Source: an uncultured bacterium (GTDB taxonomy: Bacteria > Patescibacteriota > Patescibacteriia > CAIQCM01). From it: DNA of 64,000 nucleotides. Location of the stretch: NCBI GenBank assembly GCA_963708045.1, contig OY970181.1:131740-195739 (forward strand), in the 5' to 3' direction. Both the position numbers and the translations under genes were made by a program. The notes below the pieces were generated by a model. That model was not told the origin of the DNA, made no database searches, and worked only from the letters and a program-made list of their open reading frames with translations. The stretch's first letter is position 1, and each line of letters begins with the position of its first letter. Shown here piece after piece: positions 3,467-55,469 of this stretch.

Positions 3467-3582
3467 CGTTCCCGAGCATACGAAGGGTTGCAAAGTCACT
3501 AAACAAGCTATGAGATTCCTCGCCGAGCTGAGCTCGGCCGAGCCCTAAACAAAACGACCGCACGGGCTCGGAATGACGGCGG
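3467..3582. repeat. Family-A palindromic repeat (reverse orientation)
   Basis: Contains ...cctcgccgagctgagctcggccgagcc...gggctcggaatgacggcg. Reverse complement matches the copy at 55316-55440. Confidence 0.6.
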
Positions 3583-3874
3583 GGCGCGCCGGGCTCTTGC
3601 TTTAAAAAAGATGGTTTGCTATATTTGCATCCTCGGCCAAAATCTCTCTCTGAGAGAGAAGGAAGCAACCTGCCGAGATAAAAGGAGGGAGCAAAAGAGA
3701 TAATCTAATTTTAACAACGGATTGTTTGGCGGCGGTCACATTACCCCTCAAAACACTTGAGAAGGAAACGAGCGTAAGGCACGAGGGAAAAAAACCGTAA
3801 GCGCCAGCGCGTGGCTGTCAGTTGTACCAACAACTTTCAGCCGCGCGTATCTATAAAACCGAGTCTGTTCTTTT

Positions 3875-3947
3875 TCGGGGGTAGTTCAATTGGTAGAGCA
3901 CCACTTTTGATAAGTGGCCGTTGTGGGTTCAAGTCCCACCTCCCGAA
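3875..3947 (+). tRNA. tRNA, identity ambiguous (class-I fold; anticodon loop UUUGAUA gives UGA by canonical fold, but the U1-A72 pair is Gln-like)
   Basis: 73-nt cloverleaf: acceptor TCGGGGG/CTCCCGA, D-arm GTTC-AATTGGTA-GAGC, anticodon stem CCACT/AGTGG, T-arm GTGGG-TTCAAGT-CCCAC. Confidence 0.6.
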
Positions 3948-4090
3948 CAATTCTATGTTAGATTTTCCGCCTGTGGCTGAATGACATGGCGCTGGCCAAA
4001 ATTTCAACAATCTTGCTAGGCTTGTTGAGACTAACGCCAGAAAATGCAGGTTCAACTCCTGTCGGGCGGACTAGTTAGTACCTTCTTATA

Positions 4091-4208
4091 GAAGCCGTAG
4101 CTCAATGGTGGAGCAACACGTTTCTGGAGGCGTATGCTTCCAAGGTCAGTAACCAAAAGTTATTGATCTGATTCGTGAAGGTTGTAGGTTCAACTCCTAT
4201 CGGCTTCG
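4091..4208 (+). tRNA. tRNA with about 45-nt insertion in anticodon loop (candidate anticodon UCU, Arg)
   Basis: Perfect 7-bp acceptor GAAGCCG/CGGCTTC, D-arm GCTC-AATGGTG-GAGC, T-arm GTAGG-TTCAACT-CCTAT. Anticodon stem ACACG...CGTGA encloses a 52-nt loop that begins TTTCTGG and holds two internal hairpins. Confidence 0.6.
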
Positions 4209-4234
4209 CAAAACATGACGATTGTTTATTCGTC

Positions 4235-4307
4235 GTCCCCATAGCTCAGATGGAAGAGCATGACCTTGGTAAGGTCAGGGTCACAGGTTCGATTCCTGTT
4301 GGGGACT
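4235..4307 (+). tRNA. tRNA-Thr (GGU)
   Basis: Acceptor GTCCCCA/TGGGGAC, anticodon arm TGACC-TTGGTAA-GGTCA, T-loop TTCGATT. Confidence 0.8.
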
Positions 4308-4328
4308 CAGAACGGTTGGTTCTTTTTA

Positions 4329-4461
4329 GAGGCAGTAGCTCAATTTGGTAGAGCGCCGGAATGTCACATTAAACCAAACTTTTGTAACGTTGGTCACGAG
4401 ATAGTGGGTTCAAGGTTTGTTTTAATGCCGGAGGTTACAGGTCCGACTCCTGTCTGCTTCA
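4329..4461 (+). tRNA. tRNA with about 59-nt insertion in anticodon loop (candidate anticodon GUC, Asp)
   Basis: Acceptor GAGGCAG/CTGCTTC (one G-U pair), D-arm GCTC-AATTTGGTA-GAGC, T-arm ACAGG-TCCGACT-CCTGT. Anticodon stem CCGG(A)...(G)CCGG encloses a 66-nt loop that begins ATGTCAC, close to the E. coli tRNA-Asp loop CTGTCAC. Confidence 0.55.
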
Positions 4462-4970: not shown

Positions 4971-4971
4971 T

Positions 4972-5012: not shown

Positions 5013-5013
5013 A

Positions 5014-5880
5014 TTAAAATTTATTCGTGGCTAAAACGGTTGGATGTTTTTTAATGCCCTCTACATAAAGTCTATGTATCTGCGCCGCGGACAAAGCATC
5101 ATTAAATATCCGCGGCTCATCTATAAATCCGCCAAAAGAAAAACCAGCATTCCCTCCCCATGCACCGCCATAAGGATAAAGCGTACCAATAGCCAAAGGT
5201 ATACTGTTATCTGTTGTTGCCCACGAAGAGATGTTGTGTGTGGCTGTAAGTTTGAGCGAGCCGTCTATGTATATAGAGACAGTTTTTGCAGAATCAACGG
5301 TTGCGGCAACAAATGTCCACTTACCGCTTGGCACAGTGGCGTTTGTAGCGGGTGTATTATAACCCGACACCCCTCCCAGCCCAACATATATTTTTCTGTC
5401 CGCGCCATAACTTAAAGTATAATTATACCCACCATTTCCGTTCCACGGTTTGCTTATTAAAACAGCACCGTTATTTTCTGCGACATCGGGCTTAATCCAA
5501 ATACCTAATGACATATTCCCGCCGCGATATTTAAAACCCGAATAATCATAAGCCTGCACATAATCATTTGATCCATCAAGATAAATTGAATAACCGCTAC
5601 CGCTTGGCGTATCGGTTGACCAAGTTGGACCGTTTAAGAGACTGCCAGTGTGTCCGCTACCCGAAGCATCACTCGCCACTCCTCCCGAGCCTTCGTTAAA
5701 TAACCATATGCCAGCAGGCTCGCCAGCCGTGCGATCAAGATGCGATGCAAACGCCATTCCCGCTGCAATTTTCGCCTTATCCCGAGCGGTTACTAAGGAC
5801 ACCACGGCGATTGATGAAAGAAGACCGACGATGGCAATAACGACGAGAAGTTCAATTAAGGTAAAAGCAGAGCGACGCAT
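5014..5880 (-). CDS. type IV pilin-like protein with C-terminal LamG/concanavalin-A-like domain
   Basis: N-terminal MRRSAFTLIELLVVIAIVGLL prepilin methylation motif with Glu5 and a hydrophobic helix. C-terminal ...IDEPRIFNDALSAAQI... laminin-G-like jellyroll signature. Confidence 0.75.
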   Translation of the reverse strand: MRRSAFTLIELLVVIAIVGLLSSIAVVSLVTARDKAKIAAGMAFASHLDRTAGEPAGIWLFNEGSGGVASDASGSGHTGSLLNGPTWSTDTPSGSGYSIYLDGSNDYVQAYDYSGFKYRGGNMSLGIWIKPDVAENNGAVLISKPWNGNGGYNYTLSYGADRKIYVGLGGVSGYNTPATNATVPSGKWTFVAATVDSAKTVSIYIDGSLKLTATHNISSWATTDNSIPLAIGTLYPYGGAWGGNAGFSFGGFIDEPRIFNDALSAAQIHRLYVEGIKKHPTVLATNKF

Positions 5881-5921
5881 GAATGAATATCTAATTTCTA
5901 ATACTTAATATCTAATCCGAT

Positions 5922-6767
5922 CTATGGAAAAGAGATCTGTCTATTTGTTGACGATGAAATGAGAATTTTGGGGTGCGACAAAACGCTGGCGGCATAATCT
6001 TTTTGTATCGCTTGCGCGGTTAGTGCTTTGGCATAGATCCGGACATTATCAAAATTACCCCAAAAATAATTTGTTGCCACATAACGACCGATCTCCGGCG
6101 CCCCCGTCCCCAAGAACGGACTTGACGGAGAATCGTTCGCGACGAGCGCGCCATCACGGTAAATGCTGCGCTTGTTAGTTGATCGGTTGTAAGTACAAGC
6201 CCAATGATGCCAATTCGTGTCCGTATAGGCAACCGTGTCCAGATCGTTTGAGTAAAAGGCGCAGGTAAAAGCATTCGTCTGCCTGAAACCGACGACCATC
6301 ATAGTGCTGGCACCTACACTTCCCAGCGAAAAGGCGATATCCAATCTATTTATTGCGTTGCGTTTCGCCCAAAAGGAAACCGTGAACGAGTTTGAGGCAA
6401 ACTCGGTGATCGTTCGCGCGGTGGAGGCATATTGGCTTGCGCCGTTCAGGCTAAGTGAACACCCTTTCCCCGATGGCGAATCAGACGACCATTGCGGAGA
6501 ACCGACGGGGGTTCCAATATTTCCACCCCCCGAAGAATCAGCGACGGTTGTGGCGGGAATGCCGACGCCTGTGCAATCGTCAAAATCCCACTGGCCTAAA
6601 ATTTCATCTCCAGCTCCATCAAGAACACTTCTTTCAAAAGATTGCCCGGCCGCAATTTTTGCTTTATCCCGCGCACTGCCAAGCGACACCACCGCGATTG
6701 ACGAAAGAAGGCCGACGATGGCAATGACGACGAGAAGTTCAATTAAGGTGAAGGCGCGACGGGTCAT
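5922..6767 (-). CDS. type IV pilin-like protein with LamG-like domain
   Basis: MTRRAFTLIELLVVIAIVGLLSSIAVVSLGSARDKAKIAAG...FDNVRIYAKALTAQAI. Paralog of 5014-5880. Confidence 0.75.
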   Translation of the reverse strand: MTRRAFTLIELLVVIAIVGLLSSIAVVSLGSARDKAKIAAGQSFERSVLDGAGDEILGQWDFDDCTGVGIPATTVADSSGGGNIGTPVGSPQWSSDSPSGKGCSLSLNGASQYASTARTITEFASNSFTVSFWAKRNAINRLDIAFSLGSVGASTMMVVGFRQTNAFTCAFYSNDLDTVAYTDTNWHHWACTYNRSTNKRSIYRDGALVANDSPSSPFLGTGAPEIGRYVATNYFWGNFDNVRIYAKALTAQAIQKDYAASVLSHPKILISSSTNRQISFP

Positions 6768-6790
6768 TTGTTTAAATATCTAATGTCTAA

Positions 6791-6892
6791 TCCGCCGTCA
6801 TTCCGAGCCTGTCTAGTAGATTTGTCCAAGGCGAGGAATCTCGTAGCCAATTTAAAGACTTTGAGATCCCTCGCTCGCGCTCGGGATGACGC
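6791..6892. repeat. Family-A palindromic repeat
   Basis: GCCGTCATTCCGAGC...GCTCGGGATGACGCC, preceded by the ATCTAATGTCTAATCCG word. Sits in the 5' region of pilin gene 5922-6767. Confidence 0.6.
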
Positions 6893-6946
6893 CTAACAAT
6901 AGACGCTGGCGGGATGCGACGAATATGCTAATATTATATCACGATT

Positions 6947-7609
6947 ATGAAGATAGACTTTGTTTCAATTTTTCCGGAAATGTTTGGGACTTATTTTAAT
7001 GAGTCCATTATGAAACGCGCGGCGGAAAAGCGTCTGATTAAAGTTAAGGCGCACGATTTGCGTAAGTGGGCATCGGGCAAGCACCACAAAGTAGACGATC
7101 GCCCATTTGGTGGCGGCCCCGGAATGGTGATGATGGCGGAGCCGTTTGCGAAAGCGGTTAAAGAGCTAAAAGTTAAAAGTTTAAAGTTAAAAGTTCGTGT
7201 TATCCTAATGTCTGCTTCGGGAAAAACCTTCACTCATAAAGATGCAGTACGGCTTGCCAAGTACAAACACTTAATCTTCCTCTGCCCGCGCTACGAAGGC
7301 GTGGATGCGCGCGTGGAAAAATTTGTTGATGAAAAAATTTCTATTGGCGACTATGTTTTAACCGGCGGCGAACTCCCCGCCATGGTCGTGGCTGACGCAG
7401 TCGTGCGTCATATTCCCGGCGTCCTTGGCAAAGCCGAATCGCTCACCGAAGAATCGCATACAATAGAAGGTGTTACTGAATATCCGCAATACACGCGGCC
7501 GGAAGTTTTTGGCAAACAAAGAGTGCCTGCGGTTTTGCTTTCAGGCGATCATGCGAAGATAGCCGCGTGGAGAAAGAAAAAGATGGGGCAACGAATACCT
7601 AATATCTAA
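6947..7609 (+). CDS. trmD: tRNA (guanine37-N1)-methyltransferase
   Basis: IDFVSIFPEMF, DDRPFGGGPGMVM and SIGDYVLTGGELPAMV are hallmark TrmD (SPOUT) motifs. Confidence 0.9.
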   Translation: MKIDFVSIFPEMFGTYFNESIMKRAAEKRLIKVKAHDLRKWASGKHHKVDDRPFGGGPGMVMMAEPFAKAVKELKVKSLKLKVRVILMSASGKTFTHKDAVRLAKYKHLIFLCPRYEGVDARVEKFVDEKISIGDYVLTGGELPAMVVADAVVRHIPGVLGKAESLTEESHTIEGVTEYPQYTRPEVFGKQRVPAVLLSGDHAKIAAWRKKKMGQRIPNI

Positions 7610-7629
7610 TGTCTAATATCTAATCCGTT

Positions 7630-7745
7630 GGCGTCATCCCGAAGAGCGGGAGCGATGAGGGAACTCAACGTCTCAAATCCACCTCTGCGGTTCCTCGCTC
7701 TAGACAAAACGACCATACGAGCTCGGAATGACGGCAAAAAAAACT
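7630..7745. repeat. Family-A palindromic repeat
   Basis: GGCGTCATCCCGAAGAGCGG...GAGCTCGGAATGACGGC, preceded by CCTAATATCTAATGTCTAATATCTAATCCG. Confidence 0.6.
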
Positions 7746-7777
7746 TCCCCAATAATATTGGGGAAGTTTTTAATAAT

Positions 7778-8287
7778 TTATAAATTCGGATTTGCGATAA
7801 TGTCTTCGCTAACGGATGGAGCTGAACATTTTGCGCGGCTGGCTCGATAAATTTTAATCGCGTCTTCTTGCATCTTGTTCCATTCTAAGCGCGCAGCCGT
7901 CAACTTATCACTCCACGCTTTTACGGCCGAGCCGCGCGTTTTAGAAAGCTCTTTTTTCTTTTCTTTTTTTAAATCTTTGTCCGAAGAATTTACATTGCGC
8001 AAATTTGTGAGTGCATCTTTTACCGCTGTCTTATAACCAGAACGCGATTCGCTTGATAATGAAACATATTTATCACGACCATCTTTTAATGACGCCCGAT
8101 AGGTTGCCAAAGCCGACTTTAGACATAATTTATTTTTTGCATCCGCATTTTTGTCACCAAACACAAAAGCACTAATTTTGTTCTTAATTTGCGCGAGTGG
8201 ATTCACCGACTTGGCGGCGGCCATTGTTCCCACTGAAATAAGAACGACGATCGCGATTAAACCGATTATTTTGTATGTTTTTTTCAT
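7778..8287 (-). CDS. hypothetical Lys-rich secreted/membrane-anchored protein
   Basis: MKKTYKIIGLIAIVVLISVGTMAAAKS signal/anchor. Start moved to the Met preceding the hydrophobic segment. Confidence 0.45.
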   Translation of the reverse strand: MKKTYKIIGLIAIVVLISVGTMAAAKSVNPLAQIKNKISAFVFGDKNADAKNKLCLKSALATYRASLKDGRDKYVSLSSESRSGYKTAVKDALTNLRNVNSSDKDLKKEKKKELSKTRGSAVKAWSDKLTAARLEWNKMQEDAIKIYRASRAKCSAPSVSEDIIANPNL

Positions 8288-8675
8288 AAAATCAGCTATT
8301 TTTACCATCCTAAATGATAGTAACACCAAACGCCTGTTTTTTCAATTTATCCACAGTACCTCCCCACCCCTTATGGCTATTGACGGATTATTCTAAATCG
8401 TTTATTATTGCCACATACTAATCACAACTTCTTTTCGCTTGTTTTTAGAAGAAAAAAGAGTTGAACCTAAAATCGCTTGGTTCCACTCTTTTTTCTTCCT
8501 GAAACGTTTTGGGAAGGGACATTGACAACTCAATCGTGAACCAAAAATTTCTTTCTTTGAAAGAAGAGAGAGATCCCCGGATAATAAACATTCAAAAACA
8601 ATATAGTCATTAAACACATAAGTCTGATGACTCTGGTTGAGTCCACTTCTCCTTAGGGAGATAGGGATTTCTTCT

Positions 8676-10179
<1,504 letters not shown>

Positions 10180-11984: not shown

Positions 11985-11987
11985 AAA

Positions 11988-19279: not shown

Positions 19280-19849
19280 TTAATTTTGCCAACTTGCTCC
19301 GCCCGGCGTCCAAACCGCCCAGCGATAAGCGCCACGAATTGTGGCACCCCACGGCGCAGGATCGGCAAAAGGATCGGTAAGCGACAGCGTTCCTTCTGGC
19401 GTACAGGCGGCAACTATTTTATAATCAATGCCATCAGATTTGTACGCGTAACAACTCCACGATGGCGCACTGGTGCATTCGCCACGAGCCGATGTTGGAT
19501 TAACTTTATTTTCATTTGGATCGTGCGGAAGAACAGCCAAATAAGTTGGCGCCAGATCGGGAATCCAACCACCCGAACCAGTGTCACTTTTTGCCGTCCA
19601 GTTTCCTCCTTCGTTGCATATTCCCCAAAAAGCCGAGCCCGTCAATGGGTACCCAGCATGATCCGCATAATATAACTCCAATGCCTTAGCAATTTGTATA
19701 AGATTAGCCTTGCGCTGAGTATTTCGCGCGTTCATTCTTACCGAACTCAAAGACACAACCGCAATCATAGAAAGCAGTCCAATAATCGCGATCACGACAA
19801 GGAGTTCAACTAGAGTAAAGGCGCGACGGGGCATGACGGATAACATCAA
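19280..19849 (-). CDS. type IV pilin-like protein
   Basis: MPRRAFTLVELLVVIAIIGLLSMIAVVSL prepilin N-terminus. About 185 aa. Confidence 0.75.
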   Translation of the reverse strand: MMLSVMPRRAFTLVELLVVIAIIGLLSMIAVVSLSSVRMNARNTQRKANLIQIAKALELYYADHAGYPLTGSAFWGICNEGGNWTAKSDTGSGGWIPDLAPTYLAVLPHDPNENKVNPTSARGECTSAPSWSCYAYKSDGIDYKIVAACTPEGTLSLTDPFADPAPWGATIRGAYRWAVWTPGGASWQN

Positions 19850-19853
19850 ATGA

Positions 19854-20654
19854 CTAATGTTGCGTGTCTAATGTCGACGACGAAGCAAGAATTTGCGAAT
19901 ACGAAGACGATTCTTCGGCGTAGATTTTTTTAATTTCAGAAGCAGTTAGTGAGCGGTTAAAGATTCTAACGCTATCTATAAGGCCGCTAAAAAATGTAGC
20001 TCCGGCATATATTCCTATGCCGGCGCCAGAATAATTGGCATTATTCAGAGCGGACACAGTCCCCGACCCTGCTAAACCTCCGTCCAAATATACTGAATAA
20101 GAAGTTCCACTTTGGTCAATGACCAGCTGGTGCCAAGCATTTGTGCTTACGCTCCTAGAAACCGTCCCCACCGAAAGATTAATGTCCGGGTACCACGAAA
20201 TCGCGATATTGCTCACGCGTATCAGCGTCGACCTGTACGAAAATATAGGACGAGTTGCGGCGTCTGCGGGCTTGAACCAAAGAGAATACACGAGCGACGA
20301 CGCGGTTGTGTTCACATACGGTATGCTCACATAAGCCGTTGAACCATTGAACGACAGCGAACAGCCCTTGCCGCTCGGAGTATCGGTTGACCACACTGCT
20401 GCTCCGCCGACCAAGGTTCCATTCAACCCATTCCCACTGGTATCATTTGCCGTCGTACCGGAACATTCATCAAAATCCCATTGCGCGAAAATATCATCAC
20501 CTACAACGTGTTGAACCGATTGCTCATAAGAGATACCTTTCGCAAGCCGCGCCTTTTCCCTAGCCGTTGTTAGCGAAACAACCGCGATTGAAGAGAGTAG
20601 CCCAATAATCGCGATCACAACAAGAAGTTCAATTAGGGTAAAAGCACGTTTCAT
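19854..20654 (-). CDS. type IV pilin-like protein with LamG-like domain
   Basis: MKRAFTLIELLVVIAIIGLLSSIAVVSLTTAREKARLA...IDSVRIFNRSLTASEIKKIY. Confidence 0.75.
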   Translation of the reverse strand: MKRAFTLIELLVVIAIIGLLSSIAVVSLTTAREKARLAKGISYEQSVQHVVGDDIFAQWDFDECSGTTANDTSGNGLNGTLVGGAAVWSTDTPSGKGCSLSFNGSTAYVSIPYVNTTASSLVYSLWFKPADAATRPIFSYRSTLIRVSNIAISWYPDINLSVGTVSRSVSTNAWHQLVIDQSGTSYSVYLDGGLAGSGTVSALNNANYSGAGIGIYAGATFFSGLIDSVRIFNRSLTASEIKKIYAEESSSYSQILASSSTLDTQH

Positions 20655-20672
20655 TAACTTTTTTAAAAAAAA

Positions 20673-21491
20673 TTATTTATTAACCGCTGTTAACTTGCCC
20701 GGAAGTTCGGCCAAATACATTTGCCTAACATCCATTGCAGTCAATGCGTTACCAAAAAAATGAACAGAGTCAATAAACCCGACAAGCCCTTGGCTAAGAT
20801 AGCCTATCGCCACAAACCCACTAGCATTTAAATCGTTGGCACTTAAGGCGCTTATATCCGCGGAACCGCGCAGTTTGCTATCCAAATAAACATTCATTAT
20901 GTTAGCGCTTCTGTCTATAGACAATGCCAAAAAATGCCATACGCCATCATTATATTTTCCAGATGCATAAGCAACAATGCCCGTATTATGCAATACGCAG
21001 TCCACTGTACCAGATGATATACTTCCAATTTCACACATCATTCCATTGGCGTTACCGGCGTCGGATTTTCGCAACATTACTCCACGATCAGTTTGTGAAG
21101 TTTTAAACCAAAAAGTTCTGGTCGCGTTGCCGGTGCGGACATCCAAACTGTCGTTATCTGAAATTCTGACATAGCCCGTGGCGGTTGAAGCAAGCGACGT
21201 TCCACTTCCGCTCGGAGTATCCGTTGACCAAGTTGGTCCACCAACCAAAGTGCCGCTGTTCCCGTAATTAGAAGAATCAACAGTGGCCGTGCCCGACCCT
21301 TCGTCCAAGTCCCATTGCCCAACCAATGAATCCCCCTCGGCGCGATCAATTTGCGCAGCAAATTGTTTTGCCGCCGCAAGCCGCGCCTTTTCCCTAGCCG
21401 TTGTTAGCGAAACAACCGCGATTGTTGAAAGCAATCCGATAACTGCGATTACGACAAGGAGTTCAATTAGGGTAAAGGCGCGACGGTTCAT
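20673..21491 (-). CDS. type IV pilin-like protein with LamG-like domain
   Basis: MNRRAFTLIELLVVIAVIGLLSTIAVVSLTTAREKARLAAA...IDSVHFFGNALTAMDVRQMY. Confidence 0.75.
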   Translation of the reverse strand: MNRRAFTLIELLVVIAVIGLLSTIAVVSLTTAREKARLAAAKQFAAQIDRAEGDSLVGQWDLDEGSGTATVDSSNYGNSGTLVGGPTWSTDTPSGSGTSLASTATGYVRISDNDSLDVRTGNATRTFWFKTSQTDRGVMLRKSDAGNANGMMCEIGSISSGTVDCVLHNTGIVAYASGKYNDGVWHFLALSIDRSANIMNVYLDSKLRGSADISALSANDLNASGFVAIGYLSQGLVGFIDSVHFFGNALTAMDVRQMYLAELPGKLTAVNK

Positions 21492-21630
21492 ATTGATACA
21501 GTATCATTTTTGTTATGGTATATAAAATTGGCGCTCTTCGATTTTAATAGAGTTATTTGAAGAGATTCAGCGTAAAATCACAATCAAATTTTTAGTGTCT
21601 AAAAATTTTTTTAAAACTAACTGTAATATA

Positions 21631-22089
21631 TTACGTCCCGTTCGGGGAAATACAATAATTATAAACCGCACCGCCTGAGCAACCAGAATAATCATAGGCG
21701 TTTCCGGTTGCTTTTTCCATATTTGCACATAGAATATAGCGCGTTTTATTATCTATATTCTGGTATAAATAATCACCAATTTGGTTATGTTGAGTCGGGT
21801 CTAACGGAGTACGAGCCAAAAACGATACAATGTCCGACTGAAAACCCGCCCCGAGACCGCCCGCGGGGTTGGAAATGAACGTGCACCAGCCGGCGGAGTT
21901 GCGGGGCAAATAACTGTTGACATCGGCAAATAACTCAATCGCCTGCGAAATTTGCCGCAGGTCGGCCATTCGCTTGGCATCGCGAGCTTTTACTCGCGAA
22001 GCACTCAAAGATACGACCGCGATTGTTGAAAGCAGTCCGATAATCGCGATTACGACCAGAAGTTCAATTAGGGTAAAAGCCTGTTTCAT
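21631..22089 (-). CDS. type IV pilin-like protein (small)
   Basis: MKQAFTLIELLVVIAIIGLLSTIAVVSL. 152 aa. Confidence 0.75.
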   Translation of the reverse strand: MKQAFTLIELLVVIAIIGLLSTIAVVSLSASRVKARDAKRMADLRQISQAIELFADVNSYLPRNSAGWCTFISNPAGGLGAGFQSDIVSFLARTPLDPTQHNQIGDYLYQNIDNKTRYILCANMEKATGNAYDYSGCSGGAVYNYCISPNGT

Positions 22090-22205
22090 TTTATAAATAT
22101 TAAATACACCAGTCGTGCAGATTGATTTTATTATATCACTATCCCCGCAATAAAACTCAAAAAAATCTCCTCATTTTGTTGAGGTTTCGCCTCGACAAAA
22201 ATCTG

Positions 22206-30072: not shown

Positions 30073-30138
30073 AAAAGCGACTAATTTGTCGAAGGTTTCG
30101 CCTCGATGGTCGAGGCGAAACCTCAACAAAAAACACCG

Positions 30139-37075: not shown

Positions 37076-37882
37076 TTAATTTCCCATCGCGACCTGATTT
37101 TTTCTTTTTTCTTCGGCGTATAATTTATGTACTTGCATAGCGGTGAGTGCCCCCGCATAAACGTGAATTTCATCCATAAAAGCATTGGCGGCATAAGAAA
37201 CAATTCCACCTATTTTAAGATCAACGCTGTTATTCCAACTATTTCCAACCGTCGTCGCGGTTCCTGCAAAATGCCCGTCAATGTAAAGGTTGCGCGTATT
37301 AGCACCGTTAACTGTTCCGACAATTTGATGCCACTTTCCTAAATCATCTCCGCGCTTAGAGACAAAAGGAGTGTTAGAGACACTGGAAGCGGCCAACAAA
37401 AACCCATTATTATTAAAACCATATGCCGAAGAAAGACCAAATACTGCACTATCGCCTTTAAGTATATAAACGGAAGGGGTGGAGACATTCTGATAAACCC
37501 AAAAAGATACCGTGAAATTATCCGCGAGATCCAAACTGCTTGAATCGGGAACGCTTATATATTTTCCAACGGCATTAAAATTTAAAGAGCACCCTGATCC
37601 GGAGGGCGTGCTTGTTGACCATATTGGAGAACCAACAAAAGTACCGTTATTATTATTACCCGACGAATCACTTACGGTTGTGCCCGAGCATTCGTCAAAA
37701 TTCCAGTATCCAGCAGTCTGATCACCGACGGCGCGATCAACACTAGCGGCAAACTGTTTGCCAGATGCAACCCTCGCCTTTTCGCGCGCACCGCCGAGCG
37801 ACACCACCGCGATACTAGAAAGCAGACCAATCACGGCAATGACGACAAGAAGTTCAATTAAAGTGAAGGCGCGATGGGACAT
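37076..37882 (-). CDS. type IV pilin-like protein with LamG-like domain
   Basis: MSHRAFTLIELLVVIAVIGLLSSIAVVSLGGAREKARVASGKQFA...DEIHVYAGALTAMQVHKLYAEE. Confidence 0.75.
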   Translation of the reverse strand: MSHRAFTLIELLVVIAVIGLLSSIAVVSLGGAREKARVASGKQFAASVDRAVGDQTAGYWNFDECSGTTVSDSSGNNNNGTFVGSPIWSTSTPSGSGCSLNFNAVGKYISVPDSSSLDLADNFTVSFWVYQNVSTPSVYILKGDSAVFGLSSAYGFNNNGFLLAASSVSNTPFVSKRGDDLGKWHQIVGTVNGANTRNLYIDGHFAGTATTVGNSWNNSVDLKIGGIVSYAANAFMDEIHVYAGALTAMQVHKLYAEEKRKNQVAMGN

Positions 37883-37892
37883 GACGGAATAT

Positions 37893-38732
37893 CTAATGAC
37901 TAATCCGGCTAGTGAGCGACGATTTGTTTATTGTTTCCAGTGCGATTTTATTTTCATCACTTTCTTCAGCGTACAATTTATGAACCTGCATGGCGGTTAA
38001 CGCTCCGGAATACACATGAATCTCATCCAAAAGGGCGTTTGCGGAATATAGCGTGTTCCCGCCAATTAAAAGATCAATGCTATTATTCCAACTCGTCCCC
38101 GCTCCCGTCGCCGTGCCGGCAAAATGACCGTCTAAATAAAAACTTCGTACATTTGAACCATTGACAGTACCGACAAATTGATGCCAAACACCCGTATCAC
38201 TTCCGCGCCTAGGTGCATAAGGATCAAGACTGACATTGTATGTAGCCAACATAAAACCATTACCACCAAAACCATACGCTGGAGCAAGCCCACCCAATGA
38301 GTCACTGCCCTTAAGCATAAATATGGATGTATTCACATTGTTCTGGTAAACCCAAAAAGATATTGTGAAGTTGTTGGAGAGATCCAAACTACTTGAATCA
38401 GGAATGTTTATATAATTAGCGGCGGCAGTAAAATTCAAAGAACAACCCGAGCCGGAGGGTGTATTTGTTGACCATGTTGGAGAGCCGACGAAAGTGCCGT
38501 TATTATTACCCGACGAATCGTTTGCGGTCGTGCCCGAGCATTCGTCAAAATTCCAATACCCAACGGTCTGGTCACCGACTGCACGGTCAACTGTGGTGGC
38601 AAACTGTTTACCAGACGCAACCCTCGCCTTTTCGCGCGCACCACCAAGCGACACCACCGCGATACTAGAAAGCAGACCAATCACGGCAATGACGACAAGA
38701 AGTTCAATTAGGGTAAAGGCACGACGGTTCAT
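37893..38732 (-). CDS. type IV pilin-like protein with LamG-like domain (tandem paralog)
   Basis: MNRRAFTLIELLVVIAVIGLLSSIAVVSLGGAREKARVASGKQFA...DEIHVYSGALTAMQVHKLYAEE. Start moved to MNRRAF. Confidence 0.75.
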   Translation of the reverse strand: MNRRAFTLIELLVVIAVIGLLSSIAVVSLGGAREKARVASGKQFATTVDRAVGDQTVGYWNFDECSGTTANDSSGNNNGTFVGSPTWSTNTPSGSGCSLNFTAAANYINIPDSSSLDLSNNFTISFWVYQNNVNTSIFMLKGSDSLGGLAPAYGFGGNGFMLATYNVSLDPYAPRRGSDTGVWHQFVGTVNGSNVRSFYLDGHFAGTATGAGTSWNNSIDLLIGGNTLYSANALLDEIHVYSGALTAMQVHKLYAEESDENKIALETINKSSLTSRISH

Positions 38733-39205
38733 GGATATAAAATATAATAATTTGGCCAAACATTGTGACAACTAGAAGAACAACTCATTTTGTCTGGGTC
38801 ATTTGTTCCTTCAATAGTCATCGCTAAACAATATTGTTCGTTGCTATTTTTTTGATAAACATAGACTGGCCAATTTCCACAGGTTACGGTTCGCGATCCG
38901 CGCTTTTCAAAATCAGGATCTTGGGGCAAAGGGTTAAGATATGGAGCAAGCGCCGCCGCAAGATAGCCGGTAGATACCCAACACGCCCAATCACTAGCAC
39001 AGGCGCCGACGCTTCCTGGATAGGCACTATTGTCGGCGTAATACATTTCTAAAGCCTTCGTTAACGCTCTCATATCTGTCTTTCTTCTAACGTCACGGGC
39101 TTTTGCTCTCGTGCTACTTAACGAGACTACCGCGATTGTGGAAAGCAAACCAATAATCGCAACGACGACAAGAAGTTCAATTAAAGTGAAGGCACGGCGT
39201 TTCAT
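38729..39205 (-). CDS. type IV pilin-like protein (small)
   Basis: MKRRAFTLIELLVVVAIIGLLSTIAVVSL. Start moved to MKRRAF. Overlaps the next gene by 4 nt. Confidence 0.7.
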   Translation of the reverse strand: MKRRAFTLIELLVVVAIIGLLSTIAVVSLSSTRAKARDVRRKTDMRALTKALEMYYADNSAYPGSVGACASDWACWVSTGYLAAALAPYLNPLPQDPDFEKRGSRTVTCGNWPVYVYQKNSNEQYCLAMTIEGTNDPDKMSCSSSCHNVWPNYYILYP

Positions 39206-39207
39206 AA

Positions 39208-39747
39208 TTACCAGCTTCGTGCGTCGGGAGTAGAAACCTGCCAAGCCCAAGTTAGTCTCACCGGATCAACGAATGGATCAGTCGCACTCATTATACCTTC
39301 GGGAGTACAGTGGGCTAATAATTTATAATCTGTCCCGTTTGACCTGTAATAATAACAATTAGAACTCGGCGACGTTAGACAGCCGGCGTTTGCACTACTG
39401 GTATTTCCCTTGCCGCTATTTGGGTCATGCGGCAGTTGCGCCATATAAGAAGAAAAATTTGGTATCCACGCGCCAGCACCAGAGTCGGGATATGAATTAA
39501 CGCTTGCACAATTACCAAACCATGAAAGCACACCCGTAACTGGTGGCACCAGTGTAGGCGGATATCCATTATTATCGGCATAATATAATTCTAACGCTTT
39601 TGAAACTTGTACTAGGTTTGCCTTACGCTGAGCGTTCCTTGAATTCATTCTTGTCGCACTTAAAGACACCACCGCGATCGTACCAAGGAGGCCGATAATA
39701 GCGATGACGACAAGAAGCTCAATTAAAGTGAAAGCGCGATGGGACAT
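39208..39747 (-). CDS. type IV pilin-like protein (small)
   Basis: MSHRAFTLIELLVVIAIIGLLGTIAVVSL. Paralog of 19280-19849. Confidence 0.75.
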   Translation of the reverse strand: MSHRAFTLIELLVVIAIIGLLGTIAVVSLSATRMNSRNAQRKANLVQVSKALELYYADNNGYPPTLVPPVTGVLSWFGNCASVNSYPDSGAGAWIPNFSSYMAQLPHDPNSGKGNTSSANAGCLTSPSSNCYYYRSNGTDYKLLAHCTPEGIMSATDPFVDPVRLTWAWQVSTPDARSW

Positions 39748-39849
39748 GACGGAATATCTAATGTCTAATTTCTAATCCGACTAGTGAGTGATAATTTGTT
39801 TATTGTTTTTAGTGCGATTTTATTTTCACCACTTTCTTTAACGAATGTG

Positions 39850-40341
39850 TTAATTTAAATTCACTATACATTCAATAAAGTTAGCGTTCACTGTGCGAAC
39901 CGTTCCCATTCCACAAGTTGCCGGGGGGGTAAGTAAATAATCTATGGCAGGTTGACCACCGTAAGATGCTGATGGAGAGCCGTTGTAAATATAACCGCCA
40001 TAGCCGCGTGAATTTTTATCATCAGGATCGGTGGGTTTGTTTATGAAAGGAGTAAAGAAAGCATCCACTGTTCCGCTTACAGGATATATAGAAAAACCGC
40101 CCGTGCATGAGGAACTTATACATTTCCAAAAATTACCGCCCGTATCTGGATACGCGCCATTGGCATCAAACCCTAGGTTAAAAGCAGTCACTAGTTGTTT
40201 TACATCGGCAATTCGTTTGGCGTTTAGAGATCGGCTTCGCGCTGTACTCAAACTCATCACCGCAATCGTGCCAAGGAGGCCGATAATCGCGATGACGACC
40301 AGAAGTTCAATTAAGGTGAAAGCGCGATGAGTGTTAAGCAT
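39850..40341 (-). CDS. type IV pilin-like protein (small)
   Basis: MLNTHRAFTLIELLVVIAIIGLLGTIAVMSL. Confidence 0.7.
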   Translation of the reverse strand: MLNTHRAFTLIELLVVIAIIGLLGTIAVMSLSTARSRSLNAKRIADVKQLVTAFNLGFDANGAYPDTGGNFWKCISSSCTGGFSIYPVSGTVDAFFTPFINKPTDPDDKNSRGYGGYIYNGSPSASYGGQPAIDYLLTPPATCGMGTVRTVNANFIECIVNLN

Positions 40342-48115: not shown

Positions 48116-48493
48116 GGTGGTTTGATCTGTTTAATTATTAGACGCTGGAGATTAGAGGTTTGAAATTAGAGTGAAGAAGTTCGTCGTCCGTCTTCTAACA
48201 TCTAGTCTCAAATCTCTAATCTCAATTTTTTTAGAATACAAAAAACCGCCCACGCCTCCAGCCGTCGTTCAATCGGGCCGTGAAGCATTGGGACAGGGTA
48301 AGATTTTAATTGGGGAGAAGTTTAGGCATGCGCGCGGATCGCAGGCCTTATCTGCCGCTTACGGCAAGCAGTAAAGCAAGCGAGCGTGGTTGTACAGCGG
48401 ATAAAACCGCTCCGGATAGCCCGAGCGGTTCTAAATCTGTATTTCTTGCTTTAAAGCTACCTCCGGACGGAGGTTTTGTCAACACTCTTTACG

Positions 48494-48580
48494 AACTTTT
48501 AACTTTTAACTTTTAACTTTTCAAAAAATGGCTAATTTTATACTTTTTTCTTCACTAAAAGTTAACAGTTAAAAGTTAAC
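48494..48580. repeat. Family-B inverted-repeat pair (AACTTTTAAC x4 ... AAAAGTTAACAGTTAAAAGTTAAC) with about 35-nt spacer
   Basis: Left arm 48494-48521, right arm 48557-48580. Predicted long hairpin upstream of rpoB. Confidence 0.55.
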
Positions 48581-48590
48581 ACCTCAACGG

Positions 48591-48619
48591 TTGACATTTT
48601 ATCCACAACGTGCTATAGT
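48591..48619 (+). promoter_or_regulatory. strong sigma70-like promoter (TTGACA - 17 nt - TATAGT) with no protein gene downstream
   Basis: -35 TTGACA at 48591-48596, 17-nt spacer, -10 TATAGT at 48614-48619. Next about 350 nt lack a convincing ORF and run into a family-A repeat. Confidence 0.45.
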
Positions 48620-48772
48620 ACTTTGTTAATGATTCTCTGAGGAGAGAGTTATCTGACAAACGCTTTAGCCTTTCTTGGGAGAGAAAAGGCTGATTCCAGA
48701 CTCTGGAGAGAGTCAAAAAGGCATTCTTGTTCAGCAGGAGATGCTTCTTTGTTTATTACTCTTATGTAACGG

Positions 48773-48869
48773 CGTCATCCCGAGGATACGAGGGAACTCA
48801 AAGTCTCAAAGAAAACTTAGAGCTTCCTCGCCCTGGACAAAACGTCCTTACGGGCTCGGAATGACGGCG
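48773..48869. repeat. Family-A palindromic repeat
   Basis: GGCGTCATCCCGAGGATACGAGGG...CGGGCTCGGAATGACGGCG. Identical to the copy at 49598-49696. Confidence 0.65.
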
Positions 48870-48975
48870 AGAAAAAGAGATTAGATGTTAGAGATTAGAT
48901 TTTAGAAGACGGAGGACAAACTTCTACATTCAAAGCTCAAATCTCTAAGATCTATTATTCTTTCCAATAAAGTTC

Positions 48976-49293: not shown

Positions 49294-49597
49294 CACGACA
49301 CAAGTACACAACAACCGGCCTAACGGCCACACATTTGCCTAGTGATGGGCAAGAAAGGCTTCGTCGTGAAGAAAGAGAAGAAAGATACAGCTTTCACAAT
49401 GACCTTGTGGAACAAAATCGTCCTTGCTGCAATCTGCTTGCTGATTCTAATTCCAGTAGTCGCCAGCGTCATCGTTTGGCACTAACAACAACCTCAACGC
49501 GAGCGCACTTTGGTGGATAACAACCACCCCGTGCGCCTCTCAACAGAGCTCACAAAGAAAATATCTTTGCTGGCTCTCTGAGAAACAACCAACACAC

Positions 49598-49696
49598 GGC
49601 GTCATCCCGAGGATACGAGGGAACTCAAAGTCTCAAAGAAAACTTAGAGCTTCCTCGCCCTGGACAAAACGTCCTTACGGGCTCGGAATGACGGCG
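49598..49696. repeat. Family-A palindromic repeat (exact duplicate of 48773-48869)
   Basis: 99-nt identity with the upstream copy, about 825 bp apart, same orientation. Confidence 0.65.
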
Positions 49697-50260
49697 AAAT
49701 ATTTCAGCGTTCGTTTGGGGGAGGAGGGTGTCTGCGATCCCGAAGGGCAATCGTAGCACTGGTGCCAAGGTTAGGAGAATCGGACTTGTCTGATTCGGCC
49801 CAACCAGAAACGCCGCTCTTATGTCGAGCTTGCTCAACAACAACTACTTCCCCAAACGAGCGCCTGAAAATGCATAAGCGTCCTTTGATGGTCTTTGCCA
49901 TACCGATAAAGATGACAAGACAAAGGCAACATGCAAAACAAAACCCATTCTGGCTACGCCAACGCGGCTAATGGTCAAGTCTCCGCACGGACTTGGGCGT
50001 GTCACACGGTGGCGGCGAAGGTGAAACGATTTTCACTTCGCCGCCACCGCTACCGATCTAAGGAATGTTCACGTGAAAATTCTTTTGATCGGTTCAGTAA
50101 CAACTGAATCAAATGCACCTTGAATCAAAACGGACTGATTTGGGGGTTGGAGGGGCCCTATAATTATTGAACATCTTTTTTGTTCGCCATAGGCCAATTT
50201 ACCAACCCCAACATCAGTCCGTTTTTGTATCACAACCCAGAAAACCAGAGGAGATTCCAG

Positions 50261-51993: not shown

Positions 51994-52369
51994 CCTGAAT
52001 CTCTTCACACGCCTTCGCGCCGGACTTAAGCAAGTTGATAAGCTCAACTCTTAAGTCCGGCGCATCAGATTTAAGTTCATAATCAAAAAACGATTGCGGA
52101 CTTAAAACTGATAAAACAACTATCTTGACAAAACCGTTTTTTGCGACTACAATTTAATTTATGCAAAATTCGCGGCCGAACATCGGCTGCGGTGCGGCAC
52201 TGCCGCCGAATAGAAACATTAAAGCGACGTTTCAACTTAACGTTGAAACAAATCTCTCTCCTCTTCGCTTTTTGACTTCGACTCGGCATTGCATTTCGCC
52301 AATCCGCAGCCTATGTTTCGCCACGAGGCAAAACCCTCCGATGATTATCGGAGGGTTTTGAATTAATAG

Positions 52370-52935
52370 GATAGAGCGAACGAACTCCCCCTACCCCCTC
52401 TTTTGCAAAGAGTGGGCAAAGACTGGTTAAATCTCACAAGGCACCATTATAAAAAGAGGGGGATAAAATCGCGAAAAAATCTTAGTCCTCCCTTTGGTAA
52501 AAGGGAGGGTAGGGAGAGTTCTTAACGTATCTATGACGATAATGTTTTAAAAATACCGATGGAGTTTTGCAAACGATCTTTAAAACTGTGCAAAAATTGA
52601 TGCGGCGTTCGTAACCCCTCCTACCTCCCCTTACCTCCGACGTTTTGACCTCTTAAAATAATTTGGAGGTCGGAGTCCGATCAACATCGGACCTAAGGGG
52701 AGGAAAAGATTTGTTGTACGTTTTATCAGATTTTTTCTATACCCATAGTTTTAACCTTCTCTTTCGGCTCGAGACTGATCTCCGCCAAAGGCGGATCTAC
52801 CCTCGGGTATGACACCTTTTGCGTAAGGGCAAAAGATCTCATGGCTACGTATTTTAGATGAAATTTCATTCAAACATTAAAGCATCTTTCCCCTCCCTTA
52901 AGGTAAGGGAGGGGAAAGTGGGTTATGAGTGTATG
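52370..52935. repeat. Family-C composite hairpin repeat element
   Basis: gaacgaactccccctaccccctcttttgcaaagagtgggcaaagactgg, cttagtcctccctttggtaaaagggagggtagggagag and revcomp-of-34560 blocks. Confidence 0.55.
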
Positions 52936-53033
52936 GAGGAAGAGTTGTTTCTTATTAAAAATATTCCATCGTGCGACATTGAGGCGTTCTTCCCTCTTTA
53001 TCATAACCGTATTTCCTGCTATATTTCTTAAAT

Positions 53034-55292
53034 ATGTCCCGCAAAAAATCAAACAAACTTGTTCGTTGGCATTGGGAAGTTTCGCCGGAGGTAGAACGCT
53101 CTATTTCCGCGGTTGTGCTGATTGCTTTGGGTGTGCTTTTTGGAATGGCTTATTTTGGTTCGGCCGGCGTGGTTGGGCGCTACTTGGACGCCGGACTGGG
53201 CTTTGTTTTTGGCCTTGATCGCTTTATTGTTTCTATTGTTTTCATTGGCCTTGGCTTAACCCTACTTTTTCGCGGCCACCTGCGTGCCACGGTTTTGCTA
53301 GGCGCATTTTTTTCACTGCTTTCCTTAAACGCCCTTGTCCAAATAATTACTATTCCCGCGGGTGCGACAATGCCGATGAGCGCGGGCGGCGGCGCCCTTG
53401 GACTGTTTTTGGCGAATCCGCTTGTTAAAATGCTTTCTCTTTCCGGCGCGGTGGTTATTTTATGCGCCATCCTTATCGCTGGACTAGTGCTTATTTTTGA
53501 CGCTTCGCTTGCCTCTTTTGGCGAAGCGCTAAAATTTATTACTATTCCTTTTAGAAAACTTTTTGCACCGGCCGCTTCAACTTTACCCAAACAAAAACCA
53601 ACCACGATTAAGGGCATAGACGACTCGCCTGTTGAAGAGCCCGAGGAAAAACCGGAAGAAGACGAGGAGGAAGAGGAACAAGAAGAAGAAAAAGAAAATT
53701 TGAAAACAAAAACCGCCGCCGTCCCCGAGCCGGTCTTTACCGTTGCCCCACTTCCACGCCGCATCCATCGCCGAATTGAAATTCCGCTTGATTTGCTTGA
53801 AACAAAAAGCGGTAAAGCTTCGGCCGGCGACATTCGCGCCAACCAAGAAGTCATTCGTCGGACATTGGAGCAATTTAATATTCCCGTTGAAATGGGCGAC
53901 GTTTCGGTTGGCCCAACCGTCACGCAATATACGCTAAAGCCATCCGAGGGCGTCAAACTTTCTAAAATTATTAATCTTTCAAACGACCTCGCGCTCGCGC
54001 TCGCGGCGCATCCGATTCGTATTGAAGCGCCAATCCCAGGCAAGTCACTCGTCGGCATTGAAGTACCTAACCAAACCGTTGCCATCGTTAAAATCCGCGA
54101 AGGCGTTGAAGCGCCAAATTTCCATTTGGAAAAACATATTTTGCCAATTGTTTTAGGGAAAGACGTGGCTGGCGAACCGTGGGTTGCCGACGTTACCAGA
54201 ATGCCGCATATGCTCGTTGCCGGCGCGACTGGTTCGGGAAAAACTGTTTGTCTGAACACGATTATTGTGTCGCTGCTTTTCCGCCTTGGACCCGACGACC
54301 TAAAGTTTATTATGATTGACCCGAAGCGCGTGGAACTGCCGTGCTACAACGGCATCCCCCACTTGCTCACGCCGGTTATTACCGAAGTTCCCAAAATCGT
54401 TAATTCGCTCAAGTGGTGCATTACGGAAATGGAACGCCGCTTTGATTTGCTTGCCAAACTTGGCCGACGCGACATTGCTTCGTACAACAAAGAGGTTGAT
54501 GAAACGATCAAAAAAAATCCCGAGTCCCCGCTTTCGCGCTTGCCATACATCGTTGTCGTCATTGACGAACTTGCCGACCTGATGGCGACTTCGTCCCAAG
54601 AAGTTGAAGGTTCAATTGTTCGTTTGGCTCAGCTTGCCCGCGCCATTGGCATTCACCTCATCGTTGCAACTCAGCGCCCATCGGTTGACGTTATCACCGG
54701 TTTAATTAAAGCCAACATCACGACGCGCATTGCCTTTGCCGTTGCCACTTCCACCGACTCACGCACGATTATTGACACCTCGGGCGCGGAAAAATTACTC
54801 GGCCGCGGCGACATGCTTTACACCACCGCCGAACTTTCCAAACCAAAACGCATTCAGGGCGCTTATGTAAACGACGAAGAAATTCGCCGCGTGGTTGAAT
54901 ATCTTAAGTCGCACGCCGACGGCGAACCCGAGTACCGCACCGACATTGTTGATCGGCCAAAAGCAATGGGGCCGTCCGGCGAATCTTACGATGATTCCGA
55001 AGACGATCTTTTGCCAGAAGCGCGCGACTTGGTCGTTGCCGCTGGCAAAGCCTCGGCTTCGCTTTTGCAACGCCGACTAAAAGTCGGTTACGCGCGCGCC
55101 GCCCGCTTGCTAGACTTAATGGAAACACAGGGCGTAATCGGTCCAGGCGACGGCGCCAAACCGCGCGCGATTCTTGTAAAACGTTCCACGGCTGGAATCC
55201 CAACACCCGGAGATGAATCCGCCGGATCTGTAACAATTTTCGCGGATGAAATATCAGAACCGAGCGACGATGATGACAAAGAGAATATTTAA
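53034..55292 (+). CDS. ftsK: DNA translocase FtsK/SpoIIIE
   Basis: N-terminal multi-TM domain, acidic linker, Walker A VAGATGSGKTV, Walker B IDELADLM, C-terminal gamma winged helix (LLQRRLKVGYARAARLLDLME). Confidence 0.9.
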   Translation: MSRKKSNKLVRWHWEVSPEVERSISAVVLIALGVLFGMAYFGSAGVVGRYLDAGLGFVFGLDRFIVSIVFIGLGLTLLFRGHLRATVLLGAFFSLLSLNALVQIITIPAGATMPMSAGGGALGLFLANPLVKMLSLSGAVVILCAILIAGLVLIFDASLASFGEALKFITIPFRKLFAPAASTLPKQKPTTIKGIDDSPVEEPEEKPEEDEEEEEQEEEKENLKTKTAAVPEPVFTVAPLPRRIHRRIEIPLDLLETKSGKASAGDIRANQEVIRRTLEQFNIPVEMGDVSVGPTVTQYTLKPSEGVKLSKIINLSNDLALALAAHPIRIEAPIPGKSLVGIEVPNQTVAIVKIREGVEAPNFHLEKHILPIVLGKDVAGEPWVADVTRMPHMLVAGATGSGKTVCLNTIIVSLLFRLGPDDLKFIMIDPKRVELPCYNGIPHLLTPVITEVPKIVNSLKWCITEMERRFDLLAKLGRRDIASYNKEVDETIKKNPESPLSRLPYIVVVIDELADLMATSSQEVEGSIVRLAQLARAIGIHLIVATQRPSVDVITGLIKANITTRIAFAVATSTDSRTIIDTSGAEKLLGRGDMLYTTAELSKPKRIQGAYVNDEEIRRVVEYLKSHADGEPEYRTDIVDRPKAMGPSGESYDDSEDDLLPEARDLVVAAGKASASLLQRRLKVGYARAARLLDLMETQGVIGPGDGAKPRAILVKRSTAGIPTPGDESAGSVTIFADEISEPSDDDDKENI

Positions 55293-55315
55293 CCAAATAC
55301 CTAATATCTACTCAC

Positions 55316-55440
55316 GGCGTCATTCCGAGCCTGTCCGGTCGCTCTGTCCAAGGCTCGGCCGAGCTCAGCTCGGCGAGGAATCACGAAGCTTGCTAGAGAC
55401 TTTGGGTTCCCTCATCGCTTCGGCTCTTCGGGATGACGCC
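55316..55440. repeat. Family-A palindromic repeat, flanked by CCTAATATCTA / TAGATATTAGGT inverted words
   Basis: GGCGTCATTCCGAGCCTGTCC...GGCTCTTCGGGATGACGCC. Outer words aatacctaatatcta (55296-55310) and attaggtattagatattc (55449-55466). Confidence 0.65.
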
Positions 55441-55469
55441 AAAACGGATTAGGTATTAGATATTCATAA

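Follow-up and report, generated by a model that had tools for sequence, protein, structure and literature searches.

A probable mobile REP-like element with CGTC-tagged hairpin units in a Patescibacteria chromosome

A 64-kb stretch of the Patescibacteria contig OY970181.1 (positions 131,740 to 195,739, hereafter the window) carries six copies of a palindromic element of approximately 100 bases, here called Family A. Family A is probably a non-autonomous mobile element of the REP/REPIN class (repetitive extragenic palindromic sequences and the hairpin-forming doublets made of them), in which two CGTC-tagged hairpin units are joined head to head as a heterodimer. This reading draws on paired sequence changes that fall within the unit hairpins, and on sites that are filled in the window and empty in its relatives.

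Copies of Family A and their settings

Elements were located by scanning both strands of the window for the end motif GGCGTCATYCCGAG with at most two mismatches, pairs of matches approximately 100 nt apart defining an element. Twelve matches were obtained against 0.72 expected, a number reached by none of 100 shuffles of the window. The scan confirmed that the repeats are real and that six copies are present; looser scans detected no further Family A copies in the 64 kb. When the copies are aligned in one orientation, they consist of a short unit (the C-unit) of the form GGCGTC-ATCCC-GA-R...Y-GA-GGGAW, a conserved spacer of approximately 26 nt (CTCAAAGTCTC...), and the reverse complement of a long unit (the T-unit), CGCCGTC-ATTCC-GA-GCCC...GGGC-GA-GGAAT. 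The general unit pattern is CGTCATYCCGAG..GAGGRAT. The CGTC tags point outward in all six elements, making each a head-to-head dimer, and the tag stands at the start of all 11 intact units, 10 of which were found by a regular-expression scan and one, the C-unit at 6866-6891, by eye. The copies, together with one member of a sister subfamily, are as follows.

3467 to 3582, plus strand: Family A copy 3' of the rpsP terminator, with a decayed C-unit end (TTCGTTCCCGAGCATACGAAGGG)
6794 to 6893, minus strand: Family A copy between the divergent pilin-like gene (5922-6767, minus strand) and trmD (6947-7609, plus strand)
7630 to 7736, plus strand: Family A copy that follows the trmD stop codon (7609) and precedes a canonical terminator hairpin (7739-7771)
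48771 to 48869, plus strand: Family A copy with a short C-unit at 48773-48796 (CGTCATCCCGAGGATACGAGGGAA), the spacer, and a long T-unit at 48823-48866 on the minus strand
49598 to 49696, plus strand: Family A copy with paired end motifs
55316 to 55440, minus strand: Family A copy within the loop of a hairpin of TCTAAT words, with ftsK on one side and the open reading frame (ORF) at 55470-55859 on the other
251 to 359, strand not assigned: sister-subfamily copy, GTCATTGCGAG...CTCGCAATGAC

Every Family A copy is intergenic, with real genes as its neighbours (rpsP/tRNAs, pilin/trmD, trmD/ORF, upstream of rpoB, and ftsK/ORF129), and the only ORFs overlapping them in the window are short and spurious. 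Four copies (3467, 7630, 48771 and 49598) are oriented one way and two (6794 and 55316) the opposite way. The segments 48769-48870 and 49596-49697 are identical across 102 nt; since the other copies are only 72-77% alike, most copies are old. The 3467 copy is an older one whose left end has decayed, but its T-unit is intact (3515-3578, minus strand) and holds a nested palindrome at 3522-3538. The T-unit of the 55316 copy likewise has an additional 17-nt palindrome at 55358-55374. This palindrome, GCCGAGC-NNN-GCTCGGC, occurs in the long unit of only these two Family A copies and stands free beside the element in L128, one of the relatives' contigs described below (about 1376-1392); it either arose by nested insertion or marks a subfamily. 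The sister-subfamily copy at 251-359 has the architecture of Family A, but its stems are ATTGC/GCAAT (TGTCATTGCGAG...CTCGCAATGACGCG) and its tags TGTC and CGTC. Further members of that subfamily were found in relatives, at 6272-6398 in L124 and at 1863-1964 and 3875-3949 in L128.

An earlier note on this DNA had counted seven copies, of which six were confirmed while the seventh (251-359) proved to be the sister-subfamily member with other stems. It had described the copies at 48773 and 49598 as identical, all copies as intergenic, both orientations as represented, and similar peptides (RRHSEPVR...) as arising from spurious ORFs, and each of these descriptions holds; the spurious ORFs also give SFRGARSDEES... 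peptides. Two details were corrected: the 7630 copy, which had been extended to 7745, ends at 7736 according to its end motif, and the 3467 copy, which had been called reversed, has the same orientation as the 48771 copy.

Distribution, folding and covariation of the element

A strict pattern of the paired ends gave one match in reference genomes, in a metagenome-assembled genome of Ca. Solibacter, with the same layout. A looser pattern recovered at least 120 stretches from metagenomes, mostly soil contigs by name. Among the matches listed, GC content ranged from 0.35 to 0.76, and nearly all share ends of approximately 25 nt each, CGTCATCCCGAGCG(A/T)AG(T)CGAGGGAyC, with variable centres. The viral contigs scanned for paired ends gave no match; in plasmids, BLASTN of one copy likewise gave no match, and consensus units gave near-chance matches only.

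The stem of each unit comprises five Watson-Crick pairs (ATYCC/GGRAT, the first two being A-T and T-A), a tandem G.A, and one to four further pairs. Loops of 4-5 nt occur only in short units, those of 48771/49598 (GATA) and 7630/55316 (GGGA/CGAA), whereas the tops of the long units measure 18-38 nt; the C-unit of the 7630 copy has an extended stem, GAAGAGC-GGGA-GCGATGA. In the metagenome relatives the segment inside the tandem G.A is usually 7-8 nt, closing pair included. The stem is followed by a short, conserved tail that reads CTC/CCC/CGC. The element as a whole has two levels of dyad symmetry, end with end and inner segment with inner segment, and its minimum-energy fold is a three-way junction of both pairings plus a small GGAC..GTCC hairpin, obtained as RNA and as DNA on both strands. 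The z-scores of this whole-element fold are about -4 to -5 (down to -5.3 for RNA folds) on both strands.

Seven Family A copies, of which four came from the window and three from relatives, served to compare a long-range with a local-hairpin model. The long-range model, although thermodynamically favoured, was rejected: it gave 87.6% pairing with no compensatory changes, a systematic C.A mismatch in all seven copies and a failed pair in three. The local-hairpin model gave 94% pairing with compensatory changes at four pairs, and its covariation score of 0.187, compared with 0.092 for shuffles, was reached by none of 500. For example, G14-C28 is replaced by A14-U28 in the local model, while the long-range partner remains C. 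Because the compensatory changes fall within units and none support the long-range model, these alignments favour two unit hairpins, rather than one long hairpin, as the structure kept by evolution. The long imperfect hairpin described in the earlier note is thus thermodynamically possible, but the covariation seen in the alignments backs two separate unit hairpins.

The pairing was also examined in 258 units, taken from 125 elements on fetched genome and metagenome contigs (L001-L121) and from four window copies. The Y of ATYCC and the R of GGRAT within one unit were C/G in 162 cases and T/A in 70 (232 matched), with eight mismatched. In 24 heterodimers, in which the two ends differ, 41 units matched locally and one did not. 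In 250 units from L001-L121, the pair closing the tandem GA was G..C in 180, A..T in 19 and another combination in 16, and the segment that it encloses was often GCGNAGC. The oligonucleotide d(GCGAAGC) is an unusually stable DNA mini-hairpin.

With RNA-fold z-scores this low on both strands, the copies could be structured small RNA genes, as had been proposed before, or cis-regulatory RNAs, but we regard this as highly improbable. Rfam gave no Family A match in the window at the gathering score, nor for two copies at E-values up to 10. Neither strand folds better than the other, the copies have no consistent orientation and no promoter, and their apical parts show no structural conservation. 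Their presence and absence among close relatives and the occurrence of an in-frame genic copy in a relative, both described below, also argue against a structured RNA.

Filled and empty sites and candidate enzymes

Contigs of relatives were retrieved through homologs of TrmD, RpoB and RecA. Both sites flanking trmD, occupied in the window by the 6794 and 7630 copies, are empty in L122, L123 and L124 (TrmD 87-88% identical), and L124 retains TCTAAT words where the window carries the 7630 element. In the ftsK/ORF129 region, the TCTAAT-word hairpin recurs in L128 (RecA 90%) around a plain loop of 26 nt, and the hairpin of L125 is formed by other words; both contigs lack the element. The 49598 copy has an ortholog at 1234-1340 of L128, with alignable flanks and with five substitutions and a 9-nt indel in the element, while the site of the 48771 copy is cleanly empty in L127, a contig from the same sample as L128. 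Since 48771 is identical to 49598, 49598 has an ortholog in L128 and the 48771 site is empty in L127, the simplest reading of these alignments is that 48771 is a recent copy of 49598, made after the split from the relative and lying 827 bp from its probable donor. The reciprocal case was also observed, in that the sister-subfamily member at 1863-1964 of L128 corresponds to a clean empty site near 50073 in the window. The proposal of a mobile miniature family is supported by these empty sites (the trmD flanks, the 48771 site and the ftsK loop) and by the reciprocal case; presence/absence polymorphism was seen at each orthologous site that allowed a comparison.

A Family A-like insert was also found in frame within an epmA-like class II synthetase gene next to efp in three relatives, at the following positions.

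L129, 15255 to 15341: genic Family A-like copy
L130, 12875 to 12955: genic Family A-like copy
L131, about 15281: genic Family A-like copy

The insert encodes about 21-27 amino acids (...ALSFRGARSDEESQSRNNASRSLVSLGMMG...) and is absent from the window ortholog at 63176-64000.

Some of the window copies adjoin or lie within hairpins of TCTAAT words (CTAATATCTAAT), 7-nt words with a stop codon that are arrayed as hairpins at many gene ends.

48872 to 48948: TCTAAT/GAGATTAGAG word hairpin adjoining the 48771 copy, outside the element; present in L127 without the element
55297 to 55466: TCTAAT-word hairpin with arms at 55297-55312 and 55447-55466, enclosing the 55316 copy

With the element removed, the flanks of the 55316 copy fold as a hairpin. 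The earlier note had taken these words for the inverted repeats of a MITE-like structure (MITE, miniature inverted-repeat transposable element). Because they are present at orthologous positions without the element in L124, L127 and L128, they are instead pre-existing host hairpins that are neighbours or targets of the element, and not its ends.

Such arrays of stop-codon words (TCTAAT[AG], AACTTTT/AACTGTT) form hairpins at 3402-3429, 7598-7625, 35257-35300/35657-35698 and 48152-48228, with further arrays at 48491-48600, 48872-48948 and 63102-63173, and in L125 at 882-950 and 7740-7850. L125 and L126, whose RpoB falls in the same 90% cluster, carry other words (TTAGGG[GT], TAGGGT[CA]) at orthologous intergenic positions, and L127 has ACGAAT-type words at one orthologous site; the words are replaced wholesale between close relatives. 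In L128, positions 1051-1345 are a tandem duplication with a 145-nt unit consisting of a Family A element and 38 nt of flank, after which come approximately 165 nt of other palindromic repeats with no counterpart in the window.

It has to be considered whether the copies are instead structural modules that serve the host, such as 3'-end stabilisers, terminators or protein-binding sites, spread and kept uniform by recombination or gene conversion and not by transposition. Several copies follow closely on the 3' ends of genes (rpsP, trmD, ftsK), the complete element has a strong fold as RNA or DNA, and the conservation of the 25-nt ends across the wide GC range of the listed matches could reflect a conserved binding partner. 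However, canonical terminators, at 3434-3456 and 7739-7771, already adjoin the copies, and orientation relative to transcription is mixed. In addition, the corresponding sites of close relatives are without the element and show nothing in its place, a copy lies inside a coding sequence in relatives, and gene conversion is unable to create a copy at a formerly empty site such as that of 48771 in L127. We consider the structural-module explanation unlikely.

The only transposase gene in the window, at 23645-24586 on the minus strand, is IS481-like (HTH_32 + rve + rve_3), and no Family A ends were found near it; it adjoins an ORF of 187 amino acids with no known function (23078-23641), just upstream of tRNA-Ile. 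The window contains no Y1_Tnp gene. The source contig does encode a Y1_Tnp homolog, P0272, which resembles REP-associated tyrosine transposases (RAYT); it lies outside the window among housekeeping genes, with a thioredoxin reductase gene on one side and a gene for a PEP-utilising enzyme on the other, and is the single one seen. In L128 a RAYT-like Y1_Tnp gene directly follows recA, with inverted pairs of CTTCCGAGGCGAAACCTCGGAAG on either side of it. This gene was rejected as the cognate transposase of Family A, its flanking REPs being of another type. The stems of Family A and of the RAYT-flanking REPs share only a 7-bp TTCCGAG/CTCGGAA, which is suggestive at most. The type that flanks RAYT in relatives (L128 9661-9745 and 10514-10572; L132 1700-1850) is present in the window as a second REP family, the GGCGAAACC type (GTCGAGGCGAAACCTCGAC), in five copies, one of them as an inverted pair, at the positions below.

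22180 to 22194: GGCGAAACC-type REP
22874 to 22888: GGCGAAACC-type REP
22992 to 23006: GGCGAAACC-type REP
30091 to 30125: GGCGAAACC-type REP

The presence of one rve-type transposase raises the question of whether Family A is a classical MITE, that is, an element derived by deletion from a DDE insertion sequence (IS) and recognised, as double-stranded DNA, by way of its terminal inverted repeats. Its size of approximately 100 nt and its terminal inverted repeats of 14-15 nt (GGCGTCATYCCGAG / CTCGGRATGACGSC) would suit such an element. The ends differ systematically (ATCCC versus ATTCC), though, each with its own compensating partner, and covariation preserves the pairing inside each end and not the end sequence alone. 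The sole transposase of the window has no Family A ends nearby, and no IS with matching ends is present in the window. Together with the lack of a target-site duplication at six copies and two clean empty sites, these observations make a classical MITE very unlikely.

Several points also weigh against a mobile element of the REP/REPIN class. Target-site duplications, which the earlier note had named as a feature to look for, were found neither at the flanks of the six copies nor in the two filled-versus-empty comparisons, and the copies share no conserved target sequence. The window holds a single identical pair in 64 kb, the other copies having diverged to the extent given above, and the polarity of insertion versus deletion rests on parsimony. 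Isolated units score z-values of only 0 to -1.8, and for the complete element nearest-neighbour folding prefers the long-range structure. Family A has no mobilising enzyme linked to it: the RAYT genes in L128 and L132 are flanked by another REP type (..AGGCGAAACCT..; CCGCAAGGCGAAACCTTGCGG in L132), the RAYT homologs of L133/L134 by another palindrome of their own, and 701 kb of metagenome contigs carrying the elements yielded no RAYT. Judged by these flanks, Family A is not the REP type that accompanies RAYT genes in this clade.

In the probable reading of Family A as a mobile REP-class element, the tag and the G.A-bearing version of each unit lie on different strands, so that either single strand presents one complete tagged hairpin, which would explain why orientation to genes does not matter. 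The element is probably copied into further intergenic sites, frequently next to existing AT-rich word hairpins and terminators or within their loops, with an occasional in-frame landing within a gene. By analogy, copying may proceed through single-stranded hairpin DNA by a HUH enzyme supplied in trans, for which the single RAYT-like Y1/HUH transposase P0272 is the sole candidate seen. Effects on transcripts, such as the provision of 3' hairpins, would be secondary.

A more speculative possibility, which we think improbable though worth stating, is that Family A and its soil-metagenome relatives form an undescribed branch of CGTC REPs, with a fixed tandem G.A under a GNA-type mini-hairpin, that is still actively copied. 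Were this so, the few candidate enzymes (one RAYT-like Y1 and one IS481-like) could lead to the enzyme that moves CGTC REPs, or alternatively to a conserved host factor that explains the same 25-nt ends across phyla. CGTC-type palindromic repeats have been catalogued since 2013, and no mobilising activity is known for them. Candidate-phyla-radiation genomes are usually called streamlined and repeat-poor. This lineage offers a compact place to seek the mobilising activity, with a genome of approximately 1.2 Mb, a datable recent copy and clean empty sites. For annotation, the elements matter in that they yield the spurious ORFs noted above and may add in-frame peptides to real proteins.

The window, its host and comparison with known repeats

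The source contig, which carries the exact TrmD, RecA and RpoB sequences, is 1,188,223 bp (1.19 Mb) in length. The named RecA relatives are all Patescibacteria (Uhrbacteria, Buchananbacteria, Magasanikbacteria, Parcubacteria), as are all but one of the named TrmD relatives, the exception being a Candidatus Binatia. By these protein relationships the host is a small-genome bacterium of the candidate phyla radiation, and a cyanobacterial origin, which the heptamer words had suggested, was rejected. The window belongs to the core chromosome and contains genes for malic enzyme, rpsP, a tRNA cluster, a KH-domain gene, trmD, 16S rRNA, rpoB, rpoC, ftsK, recA, ruvC and efp.

The 16S rRNA gene (8670-10177) is followed by neither a tRNA nor a 23S gene, and its 515 region reads GTGCCAGCAGCAGCGGTAA in place of ...GCCGCGGTAA, which is normally universal. 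Rfam tRNA matches at 4091-4208 (118 nt) and 4329-4461 (133 nt), and possibly another at approximately 3960-4070, were not called by ARAGORN; the long matches resemble tRNA genes with inserts of 45-60 nt and are clustered with tRNA-Ser and tRNA-Thr. Upstream of rpoB, the non-coding blocks 48229-48470 and 49700-49870 are conserved in L125-L128, whereas the stretch that separates them turns over. These blocks may be unannotated RNAs or leaders; they gave no Rfam match at the gathering score.

The largest direct-repeat families of the window are pilin-like paralogs, at least 12 in number, in three clusters (5014-6767, 19280-22760 and 37076-40341). Those scanned have an N-terminal methylation motif, and several a LamG-type domain. 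Another repeat family (..CCCCCTACCCCCTCTTTTGCAAAGAGTGGG..) occurs at 34564-34725 and 52474-52635, whose 162 nt are 89% complementary across a distance of 17.7 kb, and at 52377-52459, 61486-61568 and 61652-61734.

The literature search returned nothing relevant for the end sequences or the typical peptides of Family A, and no paper linking Patescibacteria with REPIN or RAYT. In its working Family A resembles the REPINs (Bertels & Rainey 2011), whose mobile unit likewise consists of two inverted REP hairpins and a spacer, which are intergenic and without target duplication, and whose hosts have a Y1/HUH homolog, as the host of Family A does in P0272. REPINs carry a GTAG tag, however, where Family A has CGTC, and they flank their RAYT gene, whereas the RAYT genes of L128, L132 and L133 are flanked by REPs unrelated to Family A. 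Family A thus works like a REPIN but differs in both of the features, tag and flanking RAYT gene, by which a REPIN is recognised.

Rickettsia palindromic elements (RPE) resemble Family A in being palindromic, approximately 100 nt long and found as in-frame genic copies, as in the epmA-like genes of L129-L131. They differ in host lineage and in sequence, and the Family A copies of the window are all intergenic. The small dispersed repeats and MITEs of cyanobacteria, such as Nezha, are said to be very small and hairpin-forming, to lie beside heptamer words and to nest in other repeats. Their likeness to Family A is one of description only, and the host of Family A is not a cyanobacterium. The ATTCC/GGAAT of Family A resembles the ATTCCC..GGGAAT of Neisseria dRS3.

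The closest match in structure is with the CGTC-tagged REPs, a superfamily of four families to which Neisseria dRS3 and Rickettsia RPE-4 and RPE-6 belong (Di Nocera, De Gregorio & Rocco 2013, BMC Genomics 14:522; PMC3733652). That paper describes a CGTC tag with TGTC/CCTC variants, stems of 8-9 bp that open with A-T and T-A, a loop of 4-5 nt and an unpaired 3-nt tail with the consensus CCA. It further describes mainly head-to-head dimers, frequently heterodimers, with conserved spacers of 20-100 bp, inserted within pre-existing palindromes and without a dedicated transposase; intragenic in-frame copies encode peptides such as VIPAKAGI (PMC3733652). The hosts reported there are Proteobacteria, Chlorobi, Bacteroidetes, Spirochaetes and Thermotogae. 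Set against this description, Family A has in common the outer CGTC tag, the A-T/T-A start of the stem, head-to-head dimers, a conserved spacer, insertion in palindromes, in-frame genic copies (with peptides beginning VIP...) and the lack of a flanked transposase gene. The REP-like class that the earlier note had listed among its possibilities is accordingly supported by the CGTC tags, the head-to-head dimers and the conserved spacer.

Within the same description, four differences were apparent. The stem of Family A has a fixed tandem G.A/A.G mismatch in place of a continuous helix of 8-9 bp, its loop is 4-5 nt in some short units only while the long-unit top reaches 18-38 nt, its tail is CTC/CCC/CGC and not CCA, and its host phylum, Patescibacteria, lies outside the five reported. 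The peptides typical of Family A (VIPSEA.., SFRGARSDEES) are absent from the intragenic table of PMC3733652. Family A is possibly a distinct tandem-G.A variant, though one of the four published CGTC families may already cover it; it is best filed as a CGTC-tagged REP, with Patescibacteria as a new host phylum.

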